A DNA stretch of 64,000 nucleotides from a virus (IMGVR_UViG_3300045257_000207:10059-74058), one strand, 5' to 3'. Shown: positions 16,226-17,599, numbered from the stretch's first letter. The notes: a model not told the origin generated them from the letters alone. Numbers and translations are program-made.

Positions 16226-17599
16226 ATGAATTCGATCTTTGTACAGATGGCCAGCTATCGTGATCCTCAACTTATTCCAACACTCCAGAATTTGATCAGT
16301 CAAGCCGAACATCCAAAGAATTTGAGAATTGTTGTCTGTTGGCAACATGGGGATGATGAATCCACAGAAGATTTTCTAGGTGCGGATTTCGATATCCAAG
16401 GGTATCGCACGTCAGAAGGAAATGATCCGCGTGATATCATTGAGGCCATCCACAAAGGTGCCATCGTTGAACTTATCGATGTGCCACATTTCGATTCACA
16501 AGGAGCATGCTGGGCACGTAATAAAATTCAGCAATGCTACAATGGAGAGAAATACACTCTTCAACTTGACTCACATCATCGTTTCGTTAAGCATTGGGAT
16601 ACAAAGGTTATCGAAATGTTGGAGAGTGTACGCTATAAAAGCAAGAAGCCGGTCTTGACCGCCTACATTCCAAGCTTTGATCCGGAAAATGATCCACAGG
16701 GTCGCGTCACGGTGCCGTGGAAAATGGACTTTGATCGATTCATCCCGGAAGGGGCAGTTTTCTTTATGCCAGCATCTATTGATGACTGGAAAGAAAGAAA
16801 AGAACCGATGCGAGCTAGGTTTTATTCTGGACATTTCGCATTCGCGGACGGCTCCTTTGCCGTAGAAGTGCAACACGATCCCGACTACTTTTTCCATGGA
16901 GAAGAAATCTCCATCGGCGTCCGGGCCTTTACACACGGATACGATCTTTATCATCCAATAGGGTTGATAGCATGGCACGAATACACACGAAAGGGTCGTA
17001 CCAAGGTTTGGGATGATCACACAACACCAGAAAAGAAGAACGGTAAAATCAAGCTCGACTGGGTGGAACGTAATAACCTGTGTCATCGTAGAAACCGAAT
17101 CTTGTTCGGAATGGACGGTGAAGACCCACGTCAAATAGAATTCGGCAAATACGGCTTCGGAACGGAACGAACGTTACAAGAATTTGAACGGTTTGCCGGG
17201 ATGTCATTCAAATACCGTGCCGTACAACAGTACACCATAGATAAAAAGGAACCCGTCTATCCGGTGGAAAACGTGTATGATACAGAACAGGCTTGGCGTG
17301 ACAGCATGACAACTTCGAATGATGTACGAATATGCTTCCACACCAATCATCTAAAACATCCAAAACTGGACAAGATTCCATCAGACTTTGATTTTTGGTA
17401 TGTGGCGGCACACGACGCAGATGGCGAAATCTTCCGCAAAGACCCAGTGGAAACAGAAATCAAAAATATGATGCAGCACGATTGGATCGACTACCGTTTG
17501 ATTTTTCTATCAAATCGACGCCCGACCAAGTTCGTGGTTTGGCCACATAGCAAAACTGTCGATTGGGGAGAACGATTCGAAATCCCGATCAAGGATTGA
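16226..17599 (+). CDS. GT60-family (Gnt1-like) polypeptide alpha-GlcNAc transferase
   Basis: IFVQMASYRD, GACWAR, LQLDSHHRF, FFHGEEI, RAFTHGYDLYHP. Confidence 0.85.
   Translation: MNSIFVQMASYRDPQLIPTLQNLISQAEHPKNLRIVVCWQHGDDESTEDFLGADFDIQGYRTSEGNDPRDIIEAIHKGAIVELIDVPHFDSQGACWARNKIQQCYNGEKYTLQLDSHHRFVKHWDTKVIEMLESVRYKSKKPVLTAYIPSFDPENDPQGRVTVPWKMDFDRFIPEGAVFFMPASIDDWKERKEPMRARFYSGHFAFADGSFAVEVQHDPDYFFHGEEISIGVRAFTHGYDLYHPIGLIAWHEYTRKGRTKVWDDHTTPEKKNGKIKLDWVERNNLCHRRNRILFGMDGEDPRQIEFGKYGFGTERTLQEFERFAGMSFKYRAVQQYTIDKKEPVYPVENVYDTEQAWRDSMTTSNDVRICFHTNHLKHPKLDKIPSDFDFWYVAAHDADGEIFRKDPVETEIKNMMQHDWIDYRLIFLSNRRPTKFVVWPHSKTVDWGERFEIPIKD

Follow-up and report, generated by a model that had tools for sequence, protein, structure and literature searches.

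The gene at positions 16226-17599 of the window (the whole 64,000-nt stretch of viral DNA analysed here) is, to judge from its sequence, a genuine phage member of glycosyltransferase family GT60, and its product is predicted to be a soluble, cytoplasmic enzyme. GT60 is regarded as a protist family. The new observation reported here is that long Pro-Thr-repeat (PT-repeat) genes cluster with GT60 in phages as well as in bacteria, and we regard it as fairly probable that the enzyme is a cytoplasmic initiator of O-linked HexNAc on Pro-Thr linkers. The window corresponds to positions 10059-74058 of a viral contig of 74,058 bp (estimated completeness 21%), which is a fragment of an XacN1-like jumbo myophage. 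The relevant features are collected in Table 1.

Table 1. Positions in the window of the GT60 gene, its domains, flanking signals, neighboring genes and weak acceptor candidates
Feature	Position	Strand	Basis
Conserved upstream gene, 155 aa	15686-16153	+	Homologues directly upstream of GT60 in 21 XacN1-like loci
Terminator-like hairpin (13-bp stem and T-run), its end 18 nt upstream of the GT60 start codon	16179-16207	+	
GT60 (PF11397) glycosyltransferase gene, 457-aa ORF	16226-17599	+	Pfam, phrog_24687, AF2 model
GT-A catalytic domain, aa 3-328, with DSH (DxH) metal motif at aa 115-117	16232-17209	+	Pfam envelope
C-terminal FnIII/Ig-like beta-sandwich, aa about 361-457, preceded by a linker (aa 329-360)	17306-17596	+	Domain model
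GC-rich hairpin just past the GT60 stop, likely two-way terminator	17604-17622		
NodU-like O-carbamoyltransferase, 768 aa, with C-terminal extension of about 240 aa	17663-19969	+	Pfam Carbam_trans_N/C
Two-domain glycosyltransferase, 553 aa, HtrL/YibB-like N-domain and second domain with FEDDM	19966-21627	+	Pfam HtrL_YibB (aa 5-255), TIGR02192
309-aa protein with short Pro/Thr patch (aa 168-198), weak acceptor candidate	39113-40042	+	
1395-aa protein with Thr/Ser-rich patches (aa 178 and 1076-1111), no Pfam family, weak acceptor candidate	41399-45586	+	

The gene encodes a GT60 enzyme with an additional C-terminal domain

The gene product matched PF11397 ('GlcNAc', CAZy GT60) in Pfam with an E-value of 1.4e-76 and 258.7 bits against a cut-off of 21. 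Residues 3-328 covered positions 1-350 of the 352 in the profile and the Pfam scan returned no family besides this one, which upholds the family named in an initial annotation of the sequence. Further, phrog_24687 ('glycosyltransferase') was matched with an E-value of 1.5e-172; no NCBIfam model was found for the protein, and a PDB sequence search with the whole protein gave no meaningful match. All four motifs listed in the initial annotation are present (ASYRD at aa 9-13, DSH at 115-117, GEE at 225-227 and RAFTHGYD at 233-240). In an alignment of 42 homologues with 58-75% identity, A9, Y11, D13, D115, S116, H117, G225, E226 and E227 are invariant, and likewise R233, A234, T236, G238, Y239 and D240. 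Since the highest Kyte-Doolittle mean over 19 residues is only 0.96, a membrane segment is not expected. The AlphaFold (AF2) model shows residues 4-11 as the first beta-strand of the protein rather than a signal peptide, and both results agree with the cytosolic location proposed earlier.

The PF11397 HMM recovered GT60 orthologues in the phages XacN1 and Xoo-sp13 and had no match in 14 control genomes. The XacN1 orthologue, ORF334 (BBA65482.1), is 61.6% identical and likewise 457 aa long. Among isolate phages, homologues were found in just four, namely XacN1 and Xoo-sp13 of Xanthomonas and CM1 and RAS14 of Stenotrophomonas, and metagenomes contain more than 7000. As the best 120 metagenomic homologues listed are mostly ~450 aa long with 97-100% query coverage, the C-terminal tail is present in these. 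The extension described in the initial annotation is real, its length being about 129 aa and not ~100. Three metagenomic GT60 proteins (P0132, 1109 aa; P0133, 885 aa; P0141, 837 aa) contain multiple PF11397 stretches together with two copies of the FnIII-like domain and are, therefore, read as tandem GT60-GT60 fusions; P0002 (797 aa) and P0004 (768 aa) are further long metagenomic members.

The AF2 model of the complete protein reached a pLDDT of 92.1. The top Foldseek matches listed from the PDB were nearly all GT27 polypeptide GalNAc-transferases (GalNAc-T2, T4, T12 and Toxoplasma T3; E-values of 6.6e-9 to about 1e-6) with an identity of 12-15%, followed by GlfT2 as a weaker fold match. Neither a ricin-type lectin domain nor a GT27 Pfam match was found in the phage protein, and its C-terminal domain is FnIII-like, not a beta-trefoil. 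Modelled alone, this domain (pLDDT 91.2) is an FnIII-like fold of 6-7 strands. It had no Foldseek match at E <= 0.001, and VIA-align returned matches to FnIII/Ig domains with Z <= 6.8 (the best one, an FnIII domain, at 6.8); these are generic, so that a function cannot be read from the fold. A search for the tail domain in 1.84 billion representatives gave only fragments or PF11397-linked proteins, and each larger match that was checked was PF11397-linked.

Genomic neighborhood and transcription signals

The window and XacN1 have in common the gene order DNA polymerase, RNase H, NUDIX, small ORF, GT60, carbamoyltransferase and HtrL-like gene; the XacN1 counterparts downstream of GT60 encode a 765-aa carbamoyltransferase and a 546-aa HtrL-like protein. 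The neighborhood of the phage GT60 is one of replication and nucleotide metabolism (DNA polymerase, RNase H, NUDIX, RNR), not a structural module. RNase H accompanies GT60 in 33/82 phage loci, and other neighbors in such loci are RNR, gp32, DnaB and UvsX-like genes and sometimes GT25.

The HtrL-like two-domain protein is a conserved partner of GT60. Its gene follows GT60 on the same strand at a distance of 0-6 kb in 68/82 phage loci, several of those missing it being truncated, and in 33/80 bacterial loci. The second domain of the window protein, which contains the FEDDM motif, is GT-A-like by eye and has no Pfam match. The carbamoyltransferase adjoins GT60 in 30/82 phage loci; NCBIfam NodU matched the window protein with an E-value of 6.6e-51, which is below the cut-off of the model. 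Its C-terminal extension of ~240 residues is kept in XacN1, and homologues of about 525 aa without the extension occur in other phage loci (L064-L075).

A terminator-like hairpin flanks the GT60 gene on either side. No promoter could be recognised for GT60 alone, and it is probably transcribed together with the upstream 155-aa gene by read-through. The latter encodes a globular N-domain, a variable Pro/Ala/Gln/Thr tail and a C-terminal AT-hook, RGAGRPPK (K/R-x-G-R-P). A T4-type late motif, TATAAATA, was found seven times in the window against 1.95 expected matches (positions 160, 3917, 22860(-), 23617(-), 30697, 52446 and 60510), including sites upstream of the tail sheath gene and of two minus-strand genes adjoining the HtrL-like gene. 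No exact copy is present upstream of GT60. Around the gene, only one-mismatch variants at 15635 and 17631 were detected; the one at 17631, CATAAATA, lies beyond the 3' hairpin.

Some further genes were noticed in the window or near GT60 elsewhere. A low-GC sugar operon on the minus strand (27472-33873), most genes of which have no counterpart in XacN1 or RsoM2USA, contains a 215-aa ORF with a weak, sub-threshold MptE/Maf-like match, a pyruvyl transferase, a GT-D-like gene, a DegT aminotransferase, a 642-aa and a 234-aa protein of no assigned kind, and a PglD-like acetyltransferase. Papain-family (Peptidase_C1) proteins recur near GT60, with PT-repeat tracts in aquatic phage loci (L046:1197-4118, L059:3334-6030 and relatives), and two C1-peptidase genes are present in the window (51290-52126 and 60474-61271). 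In Gemmatimonadaceae (L127:7230-7955, L102, L122, L126 and L137), a PqqD-like (peptide-binding, RRE-type) protein with a Pro/Thr-rich segment is encoded directly upstream of GT60 and the HtrL-like gene, which hints at peptide recognition.

Pro-Thr repeats accompany GT60

ORFs were counted as PT-repeat ORFs if a 20-aa window contained at least 14 P/T/S residues and at least six PT/TP/SP/PS dipeptides. Around phage GT60 genes this applied to 82 of 1444 ORFs, distributed over 40 of 80 loci and 20 distinct clusters, compared to 0 of 1158 ORFs in 117 random IMG/VR loci (p = 7e-22), whereby the control loci were k-mer-anchored random samples drawn without matching for phage type. The repeat ORF is the immediate neighbor of GT60 in 22 phage loci and lies within three genes in 32. 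In bacterial GT60 loci, 38 of 914 ORFs from 12 clusters and many phyla were positive, against 4 of 871, all four weak, in GC-matched random bacterial loci (p = 6e-8); since related loci were counted as independent, the p-values in phages and bacteria overstate independence. According to the locus lists, 14 of the 22 bacterial loci with a PT-repeat ORF within three genes of GT60 have no HtrL-like partner, and the PT-repeat link, therefore, follows GT60 itself. Its persistence without any accompanying glycosyltransferase fits GT60 as a peptide-recognising initiator. This is in line with the initiating role suggested in the initial annotation; the donor sugar, linkage and acceptor are those we infer below.

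The same association was seen in whole genomes. PT-repeat ORFs were found in all four complete GT60-positive relatives, i.e., XacN1 (15/426), Xoo-sp13 (12/415), G001 (16/410) and G002 (16/454), while the GT60-negative genomes RsoM2USA and SCTP-2 contained one weak case (1/455) and none (0/449), respectively. Pooled, this amounts to 59/1705 ORFs versus 1/904. RsoM2USA is the proposed congener of XacN1, and both GT60 and the HtrL-like gene were absent from it in HMM searches and tblastn. Nevertheless, PT linkers and GT60 could also co-vary through common lineage or ecology instead of an enzyme-substrate relation.

Our best acceptor candidate is located on the same contig just upstream of the window, where a 3075-aa protein is encoded, followed by a gp15-like sheath stabiliser and sheath genes. 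This protein contains a 146-aa PT stalk (aa 2303-2448), after which a LamG domain and a weak SPRY match are found. Its orthologues in XacN1 (ORF325) and G002 have a PT tract at the same place, and the RsoM2USA orthologue ends before the stalk. The fibre peptides considered as acceptors in the initial annotation do exist in the 309-aa (aa 172) and 1395-aa (aa 178) proteins of Table 1, but the stalk is the better candidate.

In Burkholderiaceae, a GT60 of ~50% identity is the last gene of a type VI secretion system (T6SS) operon (ImpE, TssE, TssF, TssG, TssA, fimbrial/MrkD-like, GT60). Downstream of it, in convergent orientation, lie genes for an Rhs protein and for a VgrG spike that ends in a long (TP)n tail. 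This T6SS-GT60 arrangement was observed in Paraburkholderia translucens (L100:497-12716) and in about 19 other loci of Burkholderiaceae, Achromobacter and Dyella (among L083-L139). No literature on a T6SS with a GlcNAc-transferase or GT60 was found.

Proposed function

In the mechanism we propose, GT60 would transfer HexNAc directly onto Thr/Ser hydroxyls of the PT-repeat linkers that large proteins of the same phage contain, either ahead of virion assembly or in the course of it. By family precedent, the donor would be UDP-GlcNAc and the product alpha-GlcNAc, the retaining (alpha) linkage likewise being predicted from the family. The prime acceptor would be the PT stalk bearing the SPRY/LamG domains on the 3075-aa tail-module protein. 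The sugar may next be extended by the co-conserved HtrL-like two-domain transferase and, in the XacN1-like lineage, the glycan may be further tailored by the NodU-like O-carbamoyltransferase.

NodU-type carbamoyltransferases modify GlcNAc in Nod factors, and the adjacent NodU-like gene is consistent with GlcNAc as the sugar transferred by GT60. Further, the GT27 polypeptide GalNAc-transferases, to which the fold is most similar, start mucin-type O-glycans. Characterised GT60 enzymes glycosylate polypeptides (PMC6939170). XacN1 virions contain periodic-acid-Schiff-positive (glycoprotein) bands, and ORF328 and ORF334 were proposed by the authors as the makers of these bands (PMC5852040). Together, the PT-repeat association and the Schiff-positive XacN1 virions indirectly support a Thr/Ser polypeptide acceptor. 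A biochemical study of a prokaryotic or viral GT60 was not found in the literature.

A more general reading is possible, if not quite probable: prokaryotic and phage GT60 enzymes may form a widespread cytoplasmic mucin-type O-glycosylation system, the substrates of which would be PT-repeat linkers of contractile-injection-machine proteins, namely jumbo-phage appendages and the (TP)n tails of T6SS VgrG. GT60 would be the peptide-recognising initiator, and the FnIII-like domain could be a repeat-binding module. If this were true, some T6SS spikes and many jumbo-phage PT-repeat proteins now listed as 'hypothetical' would carry glycans, and the presence of GT60 would predict that PT linkers are glycosylated. 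Such an enzyme would also be a soluble, bacterial-type tool for making mucin-like O-HexNAc peptides, and it would bear on the evolutionary relation of the eukaryotic mucin-type GT60/GT27 initiators to prokaryotic and viral enzymes.

Alternative functions

Since the GT60 gene lies in a replication neighborhood, two other roles retain some probability. It is unlikely, but conceivable, that GT60 is not an initiator and attaches GlcNAc to a glycan already present, to a lipid-linked intermediate or to a host envelope component such as the LPS core, its neighbors being a surface-polysaccharide-modifying set. HtrL/YibB, to which the partner is related, belongs to the LPS core region, a GT25 is located between GT60 and the HtrL-like gene in some loci, a GT9 is found near the XacN1 GT60, and the polysaccharide polymerase GlfT2 is among the weaker fold matches. 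However, polypeptides are the direct acceptors of all characterised GT60 enzymes and of the GT27 enzymes closest in fold, the PT-repeat link follows GT60 even where no other transferase is nearby, and the protein has no membrane anchor.

We consider it quite improbable that the enzyme serves host takeover, i.e., that it is expressed early, together with the replication genes, and attaches sugar to a regulatory protein of host or phage, as glycosylating effectors do. Its position next to RNase H in the replication module in 33/82 loci, the absence of an exact late motif at GT60, the T6SS operons of Burkholderiaceae that end with ~50%-identical homologues and the conserved AT-hook protein with its Pro/Ala/Thr tail encoded upstream would all suit such a role. 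On the other hand, the PT-repeat protein near the T6SS GT60 is the VgrG spike itself, which fits self-modification of the injection machine, and a single host target does not explain the genome-wide co-variation with PT-repeat proteins.

A Gnt1-type reaction, in which hydroxyproline is glycosylated after prolyl hydroxylation, appears very improbable. Gnt1, the best-known cytoplasmic GT60, does use hydroxyproline, PT tracts are rich in proline, and the complete relative G002 has a PF13640 oxygenase. PF13640 is absent, however, from the contig itself and from XacN1, Xoo-sp13 and G001. An inactive 2OG-oxygenase fold had been reported for the window in the initial annotation, but no 2OG oxygenase was found by Pfam in the ~50 window ORFs scanned, and none in the contig with the PF13640 HMM. 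With the hydroxylase confined to G002 among the four complete GT60-positive relatives, a hydroxyproline acceptor is largely rejected. The preference for Thr/Ser over hydroxyproline expressed in the initial annotation holds and now has stronger backing: the GT27-like fold, the missing prolyl hydroxylase in three of four complete relatives and the GT60/PT-repeat association.

Finally, the glycosylation of hydroxymethylated phage DNA bases as an anti-restriction measure is extremely improbable and was rejected, even though the gene stands among replication genes, a ThyA-family gene is present in the window (24585-25757) and DNA-modifying viral glycosyltransferases exist (Pyle 2024, as cited in PMC12619734): the ThyA homologue resembles a normal thymidylate synthase (only enzymes of this kind are among its best PDB matches, and in the translation, read by eye, the catalytic Cys and the Asn that specifies dUMP are present and the C-terminus is PIAV), the complete GT60-positive G002 lacks a ThyA-family gene altogether, none of the five records contains HMUDK, and XacN1 DNA is cut by BssHII, NaeI and SpeI (PMC5852040). 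A TET/JBP search gave no match, but the control was likewise without a match. The longest ORF of the window ThyA homologue starts with TTG, which places ~107 additional aa, among them a Cys-rich stretch, in front of a core that begins at ~aa 107. The homologue shares 47% identity with the enzyme of RsoM2USA and only 26% with that of XacN1.

Comparison with known systems

XacN1 ORF334 was annotated only as a 'glycosyltransferase family protein'; its family, an acceptor and a link to PT repeats were not proposed there. Mycobacteriophages offer a precedent, in that phage-encoded transferases attach sugars to structural proteins of the phage itself within the bacterial cytoplasm (Freeman et al. 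2023, as cited in PMC12619734). The targets described in that citation are C-terminal tails of capsid and tail-tube subunits, whereas the candidates for phage GT60 are PT linkers.

The protist GT60 enzymes Trypanosoma cruzi OGNT and Dictyostelium pp-alphaGlcNAcT2 belong to the same Pfam family as the phage protein, with full-length coverage. Both are polypeptide alpha-GlcNAc-transferases acting on Thr/Ser. As is predicted for the phage enzyme, the protist Thr/Ser GT60s carry out the first step of O-glycan synthesis by adding HexNAc directly to Thr/Ser in Thr/Pro-rich, mucin-like repeats. They are, however, Golgi type-II membrane proteins of the secretory pathway, while phage GT60 is predicted to be soluble and cytoplasmic and has an FnIII-like C-terminal domain.

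In its cytoplasmic, soluble nature the phage enzyme is closer to Gnt1 of Dictyostelium and Toxoplasma. Gnt1 is followed in its pathway by the two-domain, bifunctional PgtA (PMC6939170), and phage GT60 is likewise genetically paired with a two-domain transferase. PgtA consists of GT74/GT2 domains; the phage partner has an HtrL-like domain and a second domain without a Pfam match. Further, Gnt1 needs a prolyl 4-hydroxylase and one specific hydroxyproline on Skp1, whereas most phage relatives are without a hydroxylase and the candidate acceptors are repeats.

The GT27 ppGalNAc-transferases of animals and Toxoplasma resemble phage GT60 in having the DxH metal motif and, C-terminal to the GT-A domain, an accessory beta domain. 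They belong to another family and work in the secretory pathway with a ricin-type lectin domain, while the phage enzyme carries an FnIII-like sandwich and is predicted to act outside this pathway.
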